This document shows, one piece after another, positions 11,521 through 60,835 of a stretch of 64,000 bases of DNA (the first letter of the stretch is position 1; each line of letters begins with the position of its first letter). The notes under the pieces were generated by a model that saw only the letters and a list, made by a program, of their open reading frames with translations, had not been told where the DNA came from and made no database searches. Made by a program: the position numbers and the translations under genes. Source of the stretch: Camelus dromedarius (taxonomy: Eukaryota). The stretch lies in the NCBI RefSeq assembly GCF_036321535.1, contig NC_087436.1:54004001-54068000 (forward strand). Reading direction: 5' to 3'.

Positions 11521-14176
11521 GAATTGAGGTTTAAAAATTAATTAGGAGCTATAAGTATGAGTGGTCTTGCTGACTGCAGGAGTCCCTGAAGATGCCTCTT
11601 TTGTAGAGAAACCCCAGTTTCTTTATTTTCTGGAGGACAAATGGGGTAATTTGGCATATTTACTTTCACTTTATCTATTTTCAGAATAGTACTCTGGTAC
11701 CTCTTACTTCATCTTAGTCTGATGTCCTTAGTCTACCAACCCTGTATTTTCAGTCTCTCCAGAGAATAAATACAGTCTTCTGCTTAGATGGGAAGGGGTA
11801 GTTACCATAATGTGGGATGGGAAAGAGGGTTAGAAATCCTGATGACAACAAATCCTAAACATTTTGAAGATCCCAAAGAGCAAACTGGTTAATTCTTGTC
11901 TTTCCAATTCTGGATTTAGATTTCAAAATTTTGCTAAGTGAGTTACTGCTTGTTTTTCTTCACAGGTTCTAAAATGTTTTTGTGTTACCCCCTCTACTTG
12001 TTTTTTATTTCTCCCTTTCTTTGAGGGCTTAGTACTTTAAAAAGAATCTCTTTACTGTAGTTTTAGTTGGTTCCAGAAGGGAGTGAAATTAAGTGTACAT
12101 TTTCATTCTAACTTCTCTACCCCCAAAATACTAGTATTTTAAGCAGGCAATTTTATTTATAAAAGATTTTGAAGCCAAACAAAAAGGGTAAAAATCCCAA
12201 TCTGTTTAATCTATAATGTTAAATAAGAATGCCAAGTTTAAATAAAATTGTATTTATGCTACAATTGTGAATATAGAAAAATTATGTATGCATATATTAC
12301 TAGGATTCAAAGAGAACAATAAAAGGTAGAGCTGCACATTCCTTTTCTGGCCCCAATTCTGAAACAGATTATACTTGTTAAATTATTTTATATTTTGTCT
12401 TTAAGCTATTATGTATCTTTAGTGAGCAAAACCACACAAATTTTATTAAAAATTTTTGACAAAAAGTAGTAACTCTAGCATTTAGTGATATGCCATACTA
12501 AGAAGTATGTGATATGATCCTGATCTTTACCTGTGTCAATAAAATAATACTAGGTGATTTATTAACTCATGGGCAATAAAGCTCACACTGAAAAGAGAAA
12601 AAGTATTTTGGGGCATACATATTCTATTTCAGTGTTGATGTATAACCTAGCTATTATATGAGCATAACAGATTCATGACTTATACTCTAAAAATCTTAGC
12701 AATAAAGAAATATTTCTCTTTCATCCTTTTTTTCCCCCCTCCATATGGGATAAGGGCAGAAACAGCTGGGAAAAGAGTATCAAATTGGGCTAAACTAAAC
12801 TGGGTGCATATTCAGCTTTTATTATAGCCCATGGAGACAGGGCTGAATTGTAATGAGGTGGTCTATGTAATCTCCCAAACAAATCCTGATTCCTTAATAC
12901 AGTAAACTTATATTAAATGGTGTTTGTTTCTGTTACAAAGGTTATAACATTACCAGGGAGTATAACATGATTTGTTTTATTTCTACAAACTATCCTAAGC
13001 ACAAACTCCTACATTCCATTTTAATAATGGAAAATAACTTGTGAAACAGTAACTGAATGTTCTTCTACTCTTGGTGTTACTTGAATGATAGAAATAATGA
13101 CAGTATGAAAAAGAAGAAAAGCAGAAGAGGAGAGACGATAAGAAACATTCACAAATACCAGGAGATGACCCACTGAATAAAAATGAATTTTAAAAATTAA
13201 CTTTGATAAATAATCCCTATTCCCTTTACTTCTGCTTTGACTTCAAGTTAGGTACTGAAATCAAGATTTTAACGAGTGTGTAAGGACAAGAGCTTTCAGT
13301 TGGGAAAACGAAAGTTAGAATCCTGGTGCTTCTGTTTATTTATTTATAAAATGGGGGTAATTAATAGAATTGATTTACTTGTTTGTTATAGTTATTTTAG
13401 CAATGATGAAATATCATTTGATTTGACTATCCTCATAATGAACAATTTATGAACATGGTTGCAGGGTGGATTCAGACGAGGAGTTGTAACGTTCTATCAA
13501 GAATCATGGGGAGGGAGGAGAAAAAGAAGAAAGAGCGATATACATGACATAGAGAAAAAAGAAACAGGGAAAAAGAGATGGGGGTGCTGGGGTCATCAGT
13601 CCCCTTCTCTGTTAGGACTGGGCTGTGTTACCAGCTCTGGTCTGTTTTTGTCTGCCTTCTGATTTTCAAGAATTTCTCATATTAAAAAAAAATCCTTAAC
13701 AAATATATTCCTATGAAAAATTCTTCTATCATTTTTAGGGATTTTGTAAAACGAAGGGGAAGAACTGTAGTCTGCTAGATTCTTTTCAAATGAGAAGCCA
13801 ATAATTTATACAGAATGTAATAAATTATGAAGTCCTTTATTTTTGCCCCAGAAATACAATATTTGATTTTAAGACCAGCCCTAACCCTCATATAAGAATA
13901 CTAAAGTGGAGATCATTTAAAACATCTAATTCTATAAAATAGTACACAAGTTTAAACCTTAAATGTTAATACATAAAATAATCAGGGAAGCAAAGTAGCT
14001 CCAACTGTAAACAATACTACATTTTTTTTAAACATTGAAGCAAGTATCTACAATGCTTAAAAAAAAATAAACTAATATAATCTAAATGGATTTCCAGGTT
14101 GTTAACATCTAAAGGAAAATTTATTATACGCACAGTAGTAAGTTAATTATATGTTTGATTCACAACAAGGACTTAC

Positions 14177-14305
14177 CAAGTTCTGCTAAATTGCCAAATG
14201 CAACAAGACACATTTCTGTAAGAGCTGCATTTTGGCAGTGGATGCCCAGTAATTTAACTAAGGTAGGAATAACACCCATGTTGATAAGCTGAGCTTGAAG
14301 GGAAT
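14177..14305 (-). CDS. RAP1GDS1: RAP1GDS1 exon 6 (129 nt): DSLQAQLINMGVIPTLVKLLGIHCQNAALTEMCLVAFGNLAEL
   Basis: Acceptor ttttacag|AT, donor TTG|gtaagt; manually translated. Confidence 0.96.
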
Positions 14306-16148
14306 CTGTAAAAACAACAACAACAAAAGTGTTTATGTATTAAATGGACGTTAGTAAGAAGAAAATACCTCTTATTTTCCCTATTGCAAACTCAATACTA
14401 TTTCAATTACAATAAAGCAAGATTAAATCCAGTCATATAATTATCTTGAAAATGTTTTAAGACATTAGTTTAGAAGAGTTGAATTTTAAACCTTTTCAAT
14501 GATGAAAAAAATTTAGAAATGAAAATAATTCAAATAATATGTCAAAACATTTTTTTTAAATAAGGTCTTATAACTATATACAGTAGGCTTTAAAATGTAT
14601 AAATAATTAAATGTTAGCACTGGTTTTTAAGTTTAGAGGTTAGACAAAGTAACATTTACATTACAGGAAATCACAGAGTATATGAAAAGCATAAGGAAAA
14701 AAAGCAAGTTTAATAAAGACCAAGAGAGAAGATAAGAATCTTAGAATCCCTAAAATCCAGCTGCCTCATCATAATGGAAAAGTGCACAATACACACAAAT
14801 TACTGTTTACTTGTAGCAGAGGGTTCTTCGATGGCTGCTAGGACAGAAAGTAGCTTTAACAAGGAAAAAAATGGGTTATTTAAAATATTTTTCTTTGCAA
14901 AGTTCTATTTAAAATGACACTCATCTTAGTAAAGAAAGGAAAATTTGACTTCAGAGGTGAAGCAAACGAGGTCAACATGGCTTTGTTATCATCGCCTGCC
15001 TTCATATTCTAAGAAACTAATTGGTTTTAAACTACTCAGTATGCTTTGGCCTCCAAAATGGCTCTTCATGAACGATAACTGAATACCCATAGCAGAGTTG
15101 AAGGTAAGCAAACCTAAACTAAAACCAAAAGTATTGCCTCTCAGAAAAAGCTAAGAAGACAGAAATACATGTCTATGCAAAACACTATCACTATTAATAA
15201 CTGAGTCATCCAAAGATGTAGGAATGCTTTCAAAACTTTTCTTTTAAAATTTATGCAGTTTTCAAGCTAATAATTTTCTCCAAGTTCTTTTAAGTTACTT
15301 ATTGGGAATCTAAAGATAAAAATCTGTTTCTTATAAAACACATTTTCCTCATGGCATGCTTCCCTTGACAGAGCTGCCTACTAATCTCTTTACCACTCTT
15401 CATAGTTCTTAACCTATAGATAAGGAGGTGGCTGGGTGATTATCAGAAAGAACATAAAGGCAAGGTTAAGCTGTCTCACATGCCAACTGATTACTTGCCT
15501 GGTGGTCCTTGTTAATTTTTCCTGCTTTTAGAGTGAAGTATAAAAAGATAGACAACAGAGGCTTATTGGCCCTGAAAACTGATAATTACAGATATTATCT
15601 GGTTCAGTTGTGGGGGCCCATCTATACTAGAAAGGGGTCTATTACCAAAACAAGAATAGAAAACAGGTTGGATAAAAAGTAAAGTTTACATTTAGAGTTC
15701 AAATAGTCTAAAACAATTTCAAATTTTGCAATGGAATTATGAAGTCTGTCCTAAAAAGTGAGAGAAATCAAAGAATATAATATATTCAACTAAATGATTT
15801 GTTTTTATGCTTTTGATGTTAAACATCTTTTTCAAACTATACCCTTCAGTCATTAATGAATGATTTGCTATACTTAGAGGCAAATTACTTGTTAGACCTA
15901 TAGCATTATACCTGTTATAGTATTATACCTATGTGTTATATTGGCAGAATATTTGTATTATGGTTATAGTATTTTTAATGATCATGCACCAAGAAGCTTT
16001 CCAAGTGAAAAATTATTTTGATTACTTACCAGTAGAGTTCCTTATTATTGAATCACCTCTGCAGATCCTTGTTCTTTAGCAGTATTTTTAACTTTCATTT
16101 TTTAAATTTATTCATTTTGACTACCTCTTCAAATGCTGCAGAGCTGTT

Positions 16149-16259
16149 GAATCATTAAATTTCAGGTACGTAAGCGTGAGCACTAGCGCATGCATTGAGT
16201 GTGAGTCAAACTCCACTATATGTCTGCATATATGTAAGCATCACACACCCCCTCAGTAC
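16149..16259 (-). promoter_or_regulatory. Intronic element complementary to the candidate exon's 3' end and donor (partner 18219-18323)
   Basis: Several collinear blocks of inverted complementarity, e.g. caccccctcagt, agcgcatgc, aggta.gtaag. Confidence 0.55.
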
Positions 16260-16925
16260 TGTTGGTGCAAACAATAAAAACCCAACAGTCCAGGGACATC
16301 AGAGGAATAACAACTTTTCTGAAGGAGATAACTCAACAGGAGAATGCCACGTAGAAGGTGACGTTCTTCACGTTCTCTTAACTTGGCATCTCTACTACTT
16401 TCTTGGACCACTTTTACAATATTATGAATTTTGGTTCCAGGGAAAAGAGGGACAAAAAAGTTAAGAAATATTGCAGAGTTTCATAAAATCTTTGGCTTAC
16501 AAATTGAAGCAGCAATATTTGAAATTGTGGTAGATCAGGAGAAAAAGTAGCATAGCTCCATGGAATATGGTGTGAATTGTCCTAATTCATGAAAATCACA
16601 TTGCTTCATGAAAATGTGTTATCAAGCTACCCAGGAGCCAAATTATTTGTATACTCACATACAACACACATACCACACACAAGTAAAGAGAAAAATATAT
16701 AGTTATCCAATGGACAGAAATCATTTTGGACCACATGGGTGCTTTCTTTTATATCCATTTCTATGATGCTAACTAAAACAAAAATTATACTCTGATAACT
16801 CTAAAATCTGCTCATACCAACTGCAAAGCAAGTCATTCTCCTTTGATAATGAAGGCCCAGAAGAGGGAAAAAACCTGAACAGGTTGATACAAGTTTTCAT
16901 TTCAAGATAAACAGGCATCCTAGAA

Positions 16926-17370
16926 CGTGGTTCCCAAAGTGCAGTCAGAGGATCACTAGGTCAAAACTACTTTCATAAAAATACCACGATTCGATTTGTA
17001 TTGACACTTGCACTGATGGTAAAAAAAACATCAGTGGGTAAAACTGCTGGAGCTTTAGCATTAAACCAGTCAGTGGCACCCAACTTTATTAGTTGTTTAT
17101 ATTCCTCACCATCACACACCCACAGTACAATAAATGCTATTCTCCTCAGCAATTTTTTTTAACTTTGAGAAGTTATTTTTCATAAAAATATGTTATTTAT
17201 GGGTTTTTATTATTTTAAAATGCAAGACTAAATAATTTTTAAAATTGTCTCCATTTTAATTTCTAATACAGTAAATACTGATAGATATAATCTATATATA
17301 TAAACAAATGTTCTTTGAGATCTTCAGTAATTTTTAAGCATCTAAAAGAGCAAAAGTTTAAGAACCACTG
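16926..17370. mobile_element. hAT-Charlie1-like DNA transposon remnant
   Basis: Terminal inverted ends (cgtggttccc...aagaaccactg) and internal gcactgatggt...gtgggtaaaactgctgg motif. Confidence 0.65.
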
Positions 17371-18296
17371 CCAATGGATTACCTAACTTTTATAGGAATT
17401 GGAAAAAAACAAAACAAAACATAGAAAAGAGATTCTGAAAATCAATGATATGCTTGGCAGATGTGATAACAGAAAAAACTAAAATCAAAAAGCATGGTAG
17501 GAATCCTAGATTTTGGTTCTCAGATATTTCAAGCAAATTTAAGCACCTAAACATTTCATTTTGCTTATTTGAGTAAAAATTCTACTTAAGCTTAGGAGAA
17601 TATTCCATGATTAAATCTGTTGCTTATTTCATTACAACTTAGTATGTTATCAACAAATAGTTTTTTCAGGGGTTGAGTAGGGGTCTTGTTTGTGTGGAAT
17701 AAATTAGCATTAATTCTTATTGCTGGAAGCAAATGATTAAGTTTAATCACTTTTTCTTAATGCCCAAAGAAAACTGAATGGACTTCAAAGGGTAGTAGCT
17801 GACACTCATGCTATTATGAATGTTATCAGGAACATGACTTTAAAATCAAAGACTAACTGGAAGAAATTCTTAGAATCAGGAAGAGTTCACATTCTCTAGA
17901 TACATTTGAGAGAGTAAGTGACATAATGCAAGACTGAGACTTTTGCATCCTTCAGCAAGTACCAGCAACTCCAAGGGAATGTTTATCAGAGCTCAACAAA
18001 CACAATCCACAAAAAATGCAACCCAGGCCCATACAGAGCAAACACTTATGTGAGAAAGACAGTCTTGAGACAGCACAATGTCATAAACGTCTGAAGACTT
18101 TGAAAAACTGCTCCTGATGCACATCACAGACAAATACTGACCAAAATACAGAATTACAAAATTACATATCAAGATGACACAGGCCCTGCATGATCTATGG
18201 GGAGGAAGAGGAAGAAAGGCACTGAGGGGGTGCAATACAGATGCATATACAAAGAGATATAAGGCAATCAACGCATGCGCTGGTGTGAACACTTAC

Positions 18297-18368
18297 CTAC
18301 CTACATTTGAATTTCAATGGTTCCAAGTTCTTCAGGTCCCACTCATGGAAACTCCAAAGAATGGAGAT
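18297..18368 (-). other. Candidate poison (PTC-containing) cassette exon in intron 5
   Basis: tcttctctccag|ATCTCC...TGTAGGTAG|gtaagt; 72 nt; in phase 1 reads (D)LHSLEFP-TGA; no expression evidence available. Confidence 0.45.
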
Positions 18369-21300
18369 CTGGAGAGAAGATCTCAAGTTGAAGAACCTTT
18401 TTCCCCCTGAGTTTCAAGTTTAATGTTTAAAACATTGGTACAGATAGATCACAGGTCCAGAAAAATATGCCAAGAATTCCAGTAACTCAATTGAAGTTAT
18501 GTTGATCAACTACTAAAAAGAATAGGTTTCTTAAGATTATAACATGTTTATCTTATTCCTAAGAAAAGGCCCTCATACACAATGCTATAAGATTATTAAG
18601 CTTATTGGTAAATAGGACTTAATGATGAAACTGTGTCAAAACAATTCACAACACAGTCTCTACAGCAGTAATGTATATACGGTGTGTATATTATTCATAC
18701 TATAAAGAGCACAATATTTCTACTCACAGACTTGCATAAAAACCCCATCTACAGTCAAATAAACTATGTACAGTTGAAACAATAAAAACAAGCAGATATA
18801 AATCTTGATGAGAAGTTTTAATACAAACTGTATAAGGATCATCTGGGCATAATGAAGACTGAAGAAAATTACCCTTGTCTAATAGAACATCTATATTTCA
18901 AAAAACTATATAAAAATTAAAAATTAGAAAGGATGTAACAGTGAAGTAGAACTTGCAAGTTGAAGCAAGTTACAACTCTATTATAATGTTGAATAGCAAA
19001 CTGACTTAAATACAGCAACCAAGAGGATGGTTTGTGTTTAAAAACTCTATACATTCACACTGCAGATACAAGACTTCCTTTTCAGTTACTTAGTACCTTT
19101 TTGTTGACTCATCAGGAAAGTGAAGAATTTTTATTCTAAATCTAGTGCTGAACATAAGAAACTAAAAATATTTACAATTGTTTAAAATGAATTTACTTTG
19201 AAAGCCCTCTTTACACAAAATGTGCATTAGATGTTTTGCACCCAGATTACCCCTATAATTGACACCCCAGGTTATACATTTCAGTGACAAATAGCAATTT
19301 CAAAGGAAAATAAAGAGAATCAAGATTCATTAGTATCAAAAATATTGGAGGTCTAAAAACAATACTTTTTTTTTCTTTCTAAAAGTTAACAAAAAATGGA
19401 AAAGAGAGTTCAAAAGCTTTTCTGGGTTCTGAAAATAAGAGAGTCTCTGCAGAGCAAAATTTCCCTTCTGTAAAAGTTCTAGAGTTAAATGACAAAATTA
19501 CACGAGTGAGTATAATGTAAAAACAGCAACAACCAAAACCCCCTAAAGCAAGTCACAAGAGAAAACTCTTATTATTCATAAGAAGCTTATCCATTTACTA
19601 TTCTCAATCCAATGACATCCAGAATGATTATGTCCTAATCTAGTAGATAACTTTTTCCCTAGACTCGCTCCAGGTTAAATTATTTATTATAGATCAACTC
19701 TTGTTATAATAAATACTGCTACAAAGGTTTCACAGATACATCAACTCTGATTAAAGAAAACTCTAGGCTTTTATCGCAGAAAGAAACTGGTCTCTTACAG
19801 GTTAAAATTGGTTTTTTGTGGCCTTTTGTTTTTTGTGTTTTTTTAGAAGAGAACTACTGCCAGCTCTTGCTTAAGTAGCTCTTGTTGGGAGAAATAAACC
19901 CAGTCATGTGCCATTGCTGAGAGAAAGGCCACATCTACATATACATCTAAGTATAAATTTAAGGCCTGTATTTTTGTATAGTAAATTAAGCTAAATACCA
20001 GGTTAATTTACATGATAACATGTCTATCTTACAAACATGTGTTTAAAAACATAAAAATTTTTTGCTTTGCAAAAGGATTTACTGGCTTTAACAACAACCA
20101 AAAAACCCCACAAAACCAAAAACAAGCATTACTAGTTACCTGGGAACATTTCTATGATCAAGTTTTTATACTTTATAATTACATGGAAGTTATTTGCACC
20201 ACACAGACTGTGTTAACAGGAAATATCTACATAACCCAAAGATTTCTGATTTCTAGCCAGTAACAATTCTTAAAACATTATTTAATTAAATTTTTTTTCA
20301 GTAAATAAAATATAGGCAGTTTGTTAACAGAATTTTACTGGAAGTTAGAAAACTGGGTTACTAATTTTTATACAAGTTGATTACACATCATAGTTTTCTG
20401 CCCTGAATTTCTCTCTGAATGAGTATTTTAAGTGGCCTAAATTAAAGATACATTGATATTTGTCCAAAATCCATTATTTATCTATGGCTTTGGCCTTACC
20501 TCTTAAAGGCCAAACAACACCTGACTGCTCACTTCAATGTCATTTCTGGTACCTACAAACTTGTGCATAGGCAATAATCAGGTGTTTGATACCATCATAT
20601 TTCAACTGTTATAGTAACATCAATAATAAAAACAAGGTCTGGTCTTTCAGTTTTACTGTCACTATATGAATATTCATTTTCAAATATAGGTAAGCATTCC
20701 ACGTACAAAGTCTCCTGATGTGTTTCATATGTTGAAATTATATCAGCTGAAATATAAATGAATATTTATATTGCAATATTAAAATGTGGCAATAACTAAT
20801 GATGAAAGCTATACAAATGTAAAAATTAAATCAAGGCAGAATAATAGAGATTAGATTATCTATTCTCTTTAGAATTTACAATAAAAAATAAAATAAATGT
20901 TAGAAGCTGTTGTTGATTTTTAGTTATTTCATTCCATTCAGGCCATGACTGGTTCAACAAAAAGTCCAATTTAAGAATTCTTTACATCTTGTGAGGATGA
21001 GTTAAAATCAGAAAGCCAACTCTGCCACCTCAAATTTTCACTATAAGGAAAATCTCAAAAATAATATTCAATAACATCTATGATAGTTACCGTCAATCCA
21101 GACTAAAGCAAATAAAGAAAAACATGTTAGAGAATGAGGAACCCCAAACATACTTTGTTACTCCACTGCCTGCAGTTAAAATTTGTTATCTATTTAGTAT
21201 CACAATGCTAAATGCACTATTATGAAAGCAATCTAAAAGCTGAAAATGCTGCAAAAAGTATTATTTTTGTATTATAATGCCAAACTTTAAATCATTGACA

Positions 21301-27015: not shown

Positions 27016-27162
27016 CATTCTCATTGCTATAGTTCATCAGCATGCCACAAAAGACAGTCAAGAGCTTCTCATTGGCGGGATCTGTTATACTGCACAGTGA
27101 CCTTAAATGGTCAATTACAATCTGTGCACCACCTGCTTGGTCAACTGCACTTCTGCCCTCAT
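27016..27162 (-). CDS. RAP1GDS1: RAP1GDS1 exon 5 (147 nt, cassette exon; 607 vs 558 isoforms): HEGRSAVDQAGGAQIVIDHLRSLCSITDPANEKLLTVFCGMLMNYSNEN
   Basis: Acceptor ttttacag|AT, donor ATG|gtaaac; 49 codons equals the 607-558 difference; manually translated. Confidence 0.96.
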
Positions 27163-29920: not shown

Positions 29921-30017
29921 GATGTCACAAAGGATTATTACTTCTGGTGGGAAATAAGTAGTTTGAGCAGATGGATGCATAAGGAAGGTCTTATTATTAT
30001 ACAAATAATTAGAGGGT
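29921..30017. repeat. Inverted repeat arm 1 (partner 30934-31034)
   Basis: 66 bp perfect reverse-complement match, then a 4-nt indel and 3 substitutions. Confidence 0.95.
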
Positions 30018-30933: not shown

Positions 30934-31034
30934 ACCCTCTAATTGTTTGTGTAATAATAAGATCTTCATTCCTTATGCATCCATCTGCTCAAACTACTTA
31001 TTTCCCACCAGAAGTAATAATCCTTTGTGACATC
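30934..31034. repeat. Inverted repeat arm 2 (partner 29921-30017)
   Basis: Reverse complement reads gatgtcacaaaggattattacttctggtggg... Confidence 0.95.
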
Positions 31035-58840: not shown

Positions 58841-59621
58841 CATATATGCAACTTACTAAAATAAAAGGACTAAAAATCATATCAAATTTTGACAAATAGA
58901 GGTATAGTACTGGCCTTCCCTTAAACTTAAAAACTGCTTTAAGAAGTCAGTGTTTCTCTCGAACTGAATGAACTAAAATCATGTACAAATATTTCTGCTA
59001 CAATATAATTTTCCCAAAGAAATCTCCTCTCACTGGATGTAAGCCACATACAATCAGGTGGATTAGATATTATATAATCTAAGCTTTGCTGTCACTTGTT
59101 TTTCCAGAGTATATTCACATGGAAACCTAATAAATAAATATTCCCCAGGAAGGTGAGTTCAGAGAACAGTATATTCCAACTGTACTGTTGCAGTCAAGTG
59201 CCAATATCAGAAGGATAGGCCAAACTAAAAAAAAAAAAAAAAAAGAATAGTGAGTTTATCTGGGTATAACACAAACCAACGTATACATTGAAAAAGACAA
59301 GCTCTCCTGTGACAGTGAAGATGAATGACTCAGTGGCAGCTCAAGATCCTATAATCAAAGTAATAAATGATAGAGGTACAGCAGGGACTAGCAGTGCTGT
59401 TCTTTAACTCTACTCGGAAGGAATGGAATAGCAAATGGAAAATGTATGACTGTAACTATAGTCATTTTAAACAATCACATGAAAAAAGTCAAAGAAAAGA
59501 GAAATAGAAATAAAAAATTTCTAATCTATAAAATTAAAACATAAATTAATAAAACATACTGACAAGTAGGGTGTAAAACTGAAGATGTTCCCAGCAGAAA
59601 AGTTCTTGAGGAAAACCTCAC

Positions 59622-59744
59622 CATTTTTGGCTATTTCTGCTATGATGTTAGCTACTTTGGCTGTGCAGGAAGACTGTGGAATCAACAGACTGGCGAACAG
59701 TTGAAGTATTCCACTTCCTTGGATTTTTTCACTTGTTTCCATAT
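59622..59744 (-). CDS. RAP1GDS1: RAP1GDS1 exon 3 (123 nt): (N)METSEKIQGSGILQLFASLLIPQSSCTAKVANIIAEIAKN
   Basis: Acceptor ctttcag|AT, donor ATG|gtgagg; translation matches SmgGDS; overlaps ORF 59521..59763. Confidence 0.96.
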
Positions 59745-60835
59745 CTGAAAGAGATACATACAAAGATCTTCAGTGAAAATCTTCAACATTAACACTAACT
59801 TCATCTAAAATAAACTTTTAAAGAATTTTCACCATCCATAGTGAAAGTTAGTTCATTACATATTAAAATGTATACATTTATATAAAATTACTTCAGTTCC
59901 ATAACCTGCTTTTATCCAGAGTTTTCATTTACACAAAACACTTTTAATACAATCATTTGTCTATCTAGAACAGATTATAAAGGAACCCTTTCTGAATATA
60001 CCATTTGCATAACAAACTTACTTTTCAATGTTATTTCCAACCCCATCTATTCAAATCAAGAATGCTCTTTTTTCTACTTCACTTCTGAATTCTCTAACAG
60101 CACATTATTTTATTTATATATATTTATATATATATACACACAAATTCTATGATTTCCTATAATGCTACAGCAATTAAAAATAACAGCAATTAAATGAACA
60201 AAAAATTCACCTTATATCATTTTATATGGAGTGATACAGGAGAATATGCAACTACATAGGACTACTATGTTTCTCACACAACCTACTCAAAACCACCACT
60301 AATGAAAATGGGATACAGTAATCAGCAATAAGACCATGGTATTCAGAGATCTATATGGTGATAAAGAAATTCAAGAGGCCCCTGCTTCTTCCCTTTCCTC
60401 ACCATCTTTGTTAAAATACAACTAAAGAGCCTGGGTATGAAACCAATCCACCTCACGTAAAAGGTATGACCTATTAAAATAAAAGAGAACAGGAACACCT
60501 GGAATGATAATGGAAATAAAGAAAAGCTCAAGGAAATAAAACTTAAAATTACTATTTGACTCTGAACAATAAAGGGGAATGACATGTGTTTAAAAATAGA
60601 GAGTTATAAGGCTCATTAAAACATTCCACTTAAATTTGTTTCTATGTGTTGTTCCTCTATATCCTCTACATCCTTTGGCAGATATACCAGTAAGAGAACT
60701 CTAATGATTTCTTGTTAAGTAAATGGCACCTGCTGTGATCAATAGAGAGTAAGAAAACAATTTTTAATAGAATAATTTGAGAAAGTCTAAAAAAAAAAAA
60801 ACTATTTCTTTATAGTAAGTGCTGACTGTTCAGTT

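Follow-up and report, generated by a model that had tools for sequence, protein, structure and literature searches.

Intron 5 of the dromedary RAP1GDS1 gene contains two stretches of about 120 nt, here called arms, that are inverted copies of one another and lie about 2 kb apart; in the pre-mRNA they could pair with each other across a near-perfect 5′ splice-site motif. This arrangement raises the question of whether the arms form a selected RNA structure that keeps the splice site hidden, as an earlier note on this DNA proposed, or whether their pairing is a by-product of an inverted duplication. The window in which they were analyzed is a 64,000-nt stretch of the Camelus dromedarius genome (assembly GCF_036321535.1, contig NC_087436.1, positions 54,004,001 to 54,068,000 of the forward strand), and all coordinates given here are those of the window. 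We lean toward the second answer, namely an old local inverted duplication that survives as a neutral relic and whose duplex, if formed, would be an incidental ADAR substrate.

RAP1GDS1 is read from the minus strand of the window. The minus-strand open frame at 14163-14339 matches residues 49-94 of chain 5ZHX_A, the human Rap1 GTPase-GDP dissociation stimulator 1 (E = 1.9e-23), and the minus-strand frame at 9145-9381 matches residues 88-135 of the crystallised RAP1GDS1 chain (E = 7e-21). The 49 residues of exon 5 are missing from the crystallised chains, which pass from the residues of exon 4 directly to those of exon 6. Exon 5 encodes ARM C, and its skipping yields SmgGDS-558 (PMC8242357, in the sections available to us; also PMC5879922). 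In their order along the pre-mRNA, the features of the locus are the following:

27016 to 27162, minus strand: RAP1GDS1 exon 5, the 147-nt cassette of 49 residues (ARM C) that distinguishes SmgGDS-607 from SmgGDS-558, identified by its translation and splice borders and from PMC8242357.
14306 to 27015, minus strand: RAP1GDS1 intron 5, 12,710 nt, which holds both arms and is delimited by splice borders and exon identities.
18220 to 18336, minus strand: arm B, the 5′ arm in the pre-mRNA, with a consensus donor and two CpGs, defined by sequence, alignment, and fold; it has no genomic copy besides arm A.
16259 to 18219, no strand assigned: the 1961-nt spacer between the arms, in which an ancient dispersed repeat occupies about 17001-17371; it holds no recognizable coding remnant.
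16136 to 16258, minus strand: arm A, the second (3′) arm of the pre-mRNA, where it reads as the reverse complement of the plus-strand blocks quoted in the earlier note, with three CpGs, defined by sequence, alignment, and fold.
14177 to 14305, minus strand: RAP1GDS1 exon 6, identified by the match to residues 49-94 of 5ZHX_A and by its splice borders.

The exon 5 donor lies 8,680 nt ahead of the start of arm B, and about 1,830 nt separate the end of arm A from the exon 6 acceptor. The protein matches, the exon borders, and the identity of the cassette exon agree with the placement of the arms in RAP1GDS1 intron 5 that the earlier note had made from the sequence. The proteins that control exon 5 are described as “currently undefined” in the portion of PMC8242357 that we consulted; that the intron follows a regulated cassette exon of this kind is an observation that speaks against a neutral relic.

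The two arms are homologous in inverted orientation, far above chance. A gapped local alignment of 16136-16257 on the plus strand with 18335-18221 on the minus strand spans 109 aligned columns with 80 identities (73%); the arms differ by 15 transitions and 14 transversions, along with three indels (1, 6, and 12 nt). The local score of this alignment is 35.5, as against control maxima of 16.5 among 300 shuffles and 20.5 among 587 random genomic pieces, and a repeat search reports its core as a 48-nt inverted pair that is 75% complementary. Homology stops sharply at both ends, and the K2P distance between the arms is 0.33. The blocks of inverted complementarity quoted in the earlier note were all recovered in place, and the gapped alignment reaches slightly further outward than they do. 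Exhaustive tiling of both strands of the window with both arms revealed no third copy there, the best non-arm tile scoring 21.5. This score also disposed of an idea drawn from the look of the arms, which resemble an exon end followed by a donor: a third copy at an exon-intron junction of RAP1GDS1. A coding relic was rejected as well; the frames of 94 and 99 codons that begin inside the arms are without a Pfam match and diverge completely past the arm.

The arms likewise belong to no repeat family that six pattern searches and two DNA searches of the camel's own genome could detect, which bears out the impression in the earlier note that neither arm was a recognizable repeat. Two two-block patterns that allow for CpG decay matched the two arms only in the 2.3-Gb assembly (reversed controls, 0), as did a 35-place pattern with N wherever the arms differ and up to three mismatches allowed (controls, 0). 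A pattern for the distal block gave one extra match, with no extension beyond the block. Single-block patterns stayed at control level (four non-self matches vs. two in the control, and three vs. three), and none of the seven loci aligned past the seed. DNA searches with each arm returned only the query, at a sensitivity that was less than full, the partner arm itself having been missed. When the spacer was used as the query, the same search produced 355 first-look candidates, 40 of which were scored, and so detected an old dispersed repeat: all 39 non-self scored matches fall within query positions 743-1113 (the repeat at about 17001-17371) at 69-83% identity, and the search is therefore able to detect old families.

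A second inverted pair in the same gene bears on the origin of the arms. The strongest inverted pair of the window, 29921-30017 vs. 30934-31034, is 93% identical over 101 nt and has a 917-nt spacer; it is found in intron 4, with exon 5 following 2.7-3.8 kb downstream. Like the arms, this pair has exactly two copies in the genome, and it lacks target-site duplications. That one gene should carry two unique inverted duplications of about 100 nt, of very different ages, suggests that the mutational process behind them recurs. Inverted copies and hairpins are documented products of replication template switching, mostly in shorter events (PMC5453318, PMC8794818, and PMC7954356, in the parts consulted), and both RAP1GDS1 pairs have the features expected of it: two copies in cis, inverted, close together, and without transposon hallmarks. 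The citable published events are mostly much shorter than these, a point that counts against a template-switch origin.

The history that we propose would begin with a single inverted duplication, local to RAP1GDS1 intron 5 and about 120 nt long, probably by a replication or repair template switch. The two copies would then have drifted apart largely neutrally. The duplicated segment presumably happened to hold a strong donor-like motif, and its inverted copy would by the same event have become complementary to that motif. As a result, about 78 bp of interrupted duplex can form over the motif in the intron RNA; if it does so in vivo, this duplex would be an ordinary, incidental substrate of ADAR. 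The mutational mechanism, the neutrality, and the age of the duplication are each put forward here as probable.

The capacity of the arms to pair as RNA is high. Their sense-strand duplex is calculated at -100.7 kcal/mol (a hypothetical perfect copy would give -226.8 kcal/mol, for scale). The cofold gain is -57.6 kcal/mol, as against -9.2 ± 3.4 kcal/mol, with a minimum of -21.4, for 100 random pieces of intron 5; among the duplex controls one reached -96.4 kcal/mol, and this piece is most likely arm A itself, which had not been removed from the control pool. The minimum free energy (MFE) structure of a 2401-nt pre-mRNA has 78 arm-to-arm pairs, and in this fold the mean pairing probability is 0.60 across arm B and about 1 in the cores. 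Within the duplex of about 78 bp lie predicted helices of 15, 14, and 8-9 bp. In silico, this is dsRNA of sufficient length for an ADAR substrate, and the presence, within a single pre-mRNA, of two complementary regions that are predicted to form a stable duplex is also characteristic of the PCCR type of intronic structure (discussed below). The antisense RNA is slightly more stable than the sense RNA (-103.9 vs. -100.7 kcal/mol). Of the words sampled from 14100-19000, contigs of three RNA-seq runs contain fractions of 0.82, 0.80, and 0.40, which are not taken as evidence on expression, splicing, or editing.

Much of what the earlier note had said of the duplex survives this analysis. The uninterrupted 15-bp and 14-bp helices with G·U pairs are present in the predicted fold, and a comparison with controls favors the arms clearly, the cofold gain lying far outside the range of the 100 intron pieces. 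The A-C mismatches that it had noticed are also there, although they number five on the transcribed strand rather than “a couple” and are accompanied by 14 transversion mismatches and the three indels. Its statement that many differences become G-U wobbles holds for 10 of the 15 transitions; 19 of the 29 substitutions and all three indels break pairs. The GGUAAGU donor that it placed within the arms is covered by the duplex at a predicted probability of about 1 in the 2.4-kb fold. This donor and the exon that it might define are:

18291 to 18298, minus strand: consensus 5′ splice-site motif AG/GTAAGT in arm B, with the putative exon end at 18297 and an overlapping second GT 4 nt upstream.
18297 to 18368, minus strand: candidate pseudoexon of 72 nt (68 nt with the upstream GT), proposed from sequence only, with a pyrimidine-rich acceptor at 18369/70.

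The motif is one of 2 occurrences of AGGTAAGT and 6 of GGTAAGT on the sense strand of the window. It is the best donor consensus of the intron and is closer to consensus than the real donors of exons 4-7. Positions 18301-18289, which hold it, are paired at a probability of 0.95-1.0 in the 2401-nt fold, save for one mismatch. Read in the phase-1 frame of intron 5, the candidate pseudoexon would reach a stop after eight codons. That the best donor consensus of the intron lies in arm B with a plausible acceptor 72 nt upstream is a further observation that speaks against a neutral relic. The location of the donor inside the duplex is nevertheless not independent evidence, because an inverted duplication of any donor-containing segment buries the motif by construction. 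At least one further GGTAAGT of the same intron (at 16030) lies outside the duplex.

CpG retention in the arms is real but modest. Arm A has three CpGs (observed/expected ratio 0.51) and arm B two (0.38), as against a ratio of 0.11 for the intron, and the earlier remark that both arms keep CpGs in CpG-depleted DNA is accurate. At least three CpGs occur in 1.4%, and at least two in 7%, of 1524 non-exon windows of 120 nt; among GC-matched windows (n = 160) the corresponding shares are 3.8% and 18%. The arms share one identical CpG-containing 9-mer, which is found nowhere else in the 64-kb window, and three further CpGs lie at 16350-16371, just inside arm A. Retention of this kind could reflect constraint or germline hypomethylation, and the CpG excess in the arms is an observation that does not sit easily with a neutral relic.

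The main alternative to an incidental duplex is a selected long-range intronic structure of the PCCR type, which would hide AG/GUAAGU from the U1 snRNP and thereby exclude the 72-nt, stop-containing pseudoexon. Arm A would pair with arm B after about 2 kb more of transcription, and the structure may in this way link RAP1GDS1 output to elongation speed or to ADAR activity. We regard this alternative as unlikely, although it can draw on the stability of the duplex (-100.7 kcal/mol, a cofold gain of -57.6 kcal/mol, 78 pairs, and a donor paired at about 1), on the strong donor motif and its usable acceptor, on the CpGs retained in the arms, and on the fact that the arms are not a dispersed repeat. 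Arm A is also transcribed ahead of the exon 6 acceptor, from which competition would appear possible in the order of events. The class itself is documented, including obstructed cryptic splice sites and an enrichment of editing sites (PMC8052449, in the sections available to us). A comparison of the arms with each other, which is of low power, gives no sign of a substitution bias toward pairing. Of the 15 transitions, 10 appear as G·U and 5 as A·C oppositions on the transcribed strand (binomial p ~0.3), a ratio that is reversed on the opposite strand, and many G·U pairs are to be expected in any case since transitions between two old copies produce them. The ratio of transitions to transversions is about 1:1, and, as noted above, 19 of 29 substitutions and three indels break pairs. 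The sense duplex is no more stable than the antisense duplex. Comparable pairs are also common in the genome: with the same BLAST settings, 4 of 20 random 10-kb regions contain inverted pairs that reach 39 bits or more with the two copies no further than 5 kb apart, the survey yielding seven pairs of such strength in 200 kb, and within the window the arms rank only sixth among inverted pairs, with direct pairs scoring similarly. The GGTAAGT at 16030, in the same intron, is left uncovered, and the splicing of the pseudoexon is a prediction made purely from sequence. The name RAP1GDS1 occurs 0 times in five supplement files of PMC8052449, the full catalogue not being among them, and the authors of that study themselves put the false discovery rate of the class at up to about 47%, in the text that we consulted. 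On the strength of the transition counts, the ts:tv ratio, the pair-breaking changes, the stability of the antisense duplex, and the base rate, the claim of the earlier note that the structure is selected is not supported. A search for copies in other species by two metagenome pattern scans gave 0 and 1 matches, the single match (59% GC, without BLAST similarity to the window) being attributable to chance.

Two other explanations account for the arms at the level of DNA. The arms could be the relic of a very old, very low-copy mobile element, being either the terminal inverted repeats (TIRs) of one DNA transposon of about 2.2 kb or two opposite insertions of a decayed family. Arms of about 120 nt that bound a unit of about 2.2 kb do resemble long terminal inverted repeats, and their divergence is typical of ancient mammalian repeats. 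The pattern test, moreover, is weak for old families: with three mismatches allowed, about three matches would be expected from a family of about 45 copies at 25% divergence or about 150 copies at 30%, and at 30-35% divergence only 2% to 0.5% of copies pass, so that families of fewer than about 150-590 copies could escape. We nonetheless judge a mobile-element relic improbable, as neither the six pattern searches nor the two DNA searches produced a further copy and the arms are without transposon hallmarks. At their outer ends, target-site duplication does not rise above background (the closest approach to one is a 6-mer lying offset from where the alignment ends, and 46.5% of 200 random position pairs do equally well). 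There is no transposase-like frame, none of the 14 surrounding open frames having a Pfam match with E below 0.07, a test that very old remnants could escape. Rfam at gathering thresholds gave 0 matches in the window and a tRNA scan none, and a permissive Rfam search over 15900-18600 gave one chance-level match to a plant miRNA family (23 bits vs. a cut-off of 80). The younger pair in intron 4, finally, has the same architecture and is strictly two-copy, which would be unexpected for a transposon family. The second explanation is a duplicated regulatory element, such as an intronic enhancer or a hypomethylated site, in which a TF-binding sequence is conserved and RNA complementarity is a by-product. 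It could explain the CpG ratios of the arms (0.51 and 0.38 vs. 0.11), the three CpGs at 16350-16371, and the CpG-containing core that both arms share and that is unique in the 64-kb window; this core resembles what we take to be the palindromic NRF1 site. However, the CpG excess is modest after GC matching, and the longest identical runs (9-12 nt) are about what chance would give for 73% identity over 109 columns (about 11 by our own estimate), and we consider a regulatory element very improbable.

The boldest form of a functional reading would have a conserved duplex, downstream of the medically relevant cassette exon 5, cover a near-perfect 5′ splice site and thereby keep a 72-nt, stop-containing poison exon out of use. 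Opening of the duplex, by faster elongation, by helicases, or by ADAR editing of A·C and A-U positions, would then reduce the amount of SmgGDS made or shift the balance of the 607 and 558 forms. We give this reading little credence. If the duplex were functional, it would be a concrete cis-element and a target for antisense agents in a gene whose exon 5 regulators are undefined, according to the sections of PMC8242357 available to us, and whose ratio of isoforms is a current target in cancer. It would at the same time be a further example of a mechanism already catalogued, and even the boldest reading would leave the known class one member larger. As it stands, the result serves mainly as a caution. 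Long helices, many G·U pairs, and a buried copy of any motif that was duplicated all follow automatically from an inverted duplication, and pairs of such strength turn up in roughly every fifth 10-kb stretch of this genome; taken singly, these features are no sign of selection.

Among known systems, the arms invite comparison above all with the conserved intronic complementary regions of Kalmykova et al. (2021; PMC8052449), which, in the part of that study consulted, are enriched over cryptic or inactive splice sites and over editing sites. Like these PCCRs, the arms are complementary stretches in one intron that lie kilobases apart, outside annotated repeats, and over an unused consensus splice site, and their duplex energy is far beyond the floor of -15 kcal/mol used for the catalogue. 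The two differ in that both arms of a PCCR lie by definition in vertebrate-conserved elements, whereas the arms here are paralogues with 73% identity and many pair-breaking changes and are known from one genome. In Ate1, too, long-range intronic base pairing is proposed to steer a splice choice (PMC7797038, in the sections seen). There, however, the elements are conserved, validated by mutation and compensation, and placed so that they flank the regulated exons; in RAP1GDS1 the arms share a single intron at a distance of 8.7 kb from the cassette exon, and the pairing is predicted.

Our literature search found nothing that ties RAP1GDS1 to long-range RNA structure or to a cryptic or poison exon, one general review (PMC11171328) containing both the gene name and the term “cryptic exon.” The gene name is absent from the supplement of PMC10691357 (one file) and from the 11 of 24 supplement files of PMC5991522 that the search covered. 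In human RAP1GDS1, according to the main text of the latter study as far as it was available (Hsiao et al. 2018, PMC5991522), the use of an alternative 3′ splice site depends on ADAR1.

The likeness to template-switch inverted duplicates (Löytynoja and Goldman 2017, PMC5453318; Mönttinen and Löytynoja 2022, PMC8794818; both consulted in part) is of another kind. In such events a reverse-complement copy arises near its source and hairpin potential is gained in one step without selection, and the arms resemble them in being strictly local and two-copy and in recurring within the same gene as the intron 4 pair. The events described in those parts of the two papers are mostly tens of bases long and short-range, whereas the arms of the two RAP1GDS1 pairs measure about 100-120 nt and the distances between them 0.9-2 kb. 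Inverted pairs of interspersed repeats, such as SINEs, resemble the arms in forming an imperfect long intronic duplex that is likely a promiscuous editing target, and differ from them in being drawn from a dispersed family.

At stringent BLAST settings, the whole 64-kb window (32% GC, CpG observed/expected 0.13) contains no direct repeat pairs and a single inverted pair, and is therefore almost devoid of young interspersed repeats. Beyond arm A and arm B, the inverted copies that lie in intron 5 of RAP1GDS1 and are predicted to pair as an RNA duplex, the following elements are present:

16024-16030, minus strand: second sense-strand GGTAAGT of intron 5
16186-16193 and 18273-18281: CpG-bearing core common to arm A and arm B
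about 17001-17371: ancient dispersed repeat with genome-wide copies, within the spacer between the arms
29921-30017 and 30934-31034: younger inverted repeat in intron 4 (93% identity over 101 nt, spacer of 917 nt)
59524-59769, minus strand: exon-like frame of armadillo type, upstream of exon 4

The inverted repeat of intron 4 precedes cassette exon 5 by 2.7-3.8 kb, and its only genome-wide matches are its own two arms; a search for a target-site duplication at this repeat found none. This pair would form a far better predicted dsRNA than the arm A/arm B pair. It is also much the younger of the two, and the regulated exon 5 is nearer to it. Farther upstream, the armadillo-type frame has no match in the solved chains of SmgGDS, the RAP1GDS1 protein, which could be explained if the N-terminal part is missing from the crystallised constructs.

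Within intron 5, the second GGTAAGT is positioned about 100 nt past arm A on its outer side, where the duplex does not reach. The spacer repeat has 355 first-look candidates genome-wide, with 69-83% identity among the copies scored. The CpG-bearing core of the arms, which we take to resemble the palindromic NRF1 binding site, does not occur elsewhere in the window. Three additional CpGs fall within 22 nt at 16350-16371, about 100 nt from arm A on the spacer side; with the three of arm A itself, this gives six CpGs in about 200 nt (34 in the 12.7 kb of intron 5 as a whole), a patch that may be hypomethylated or constrained.
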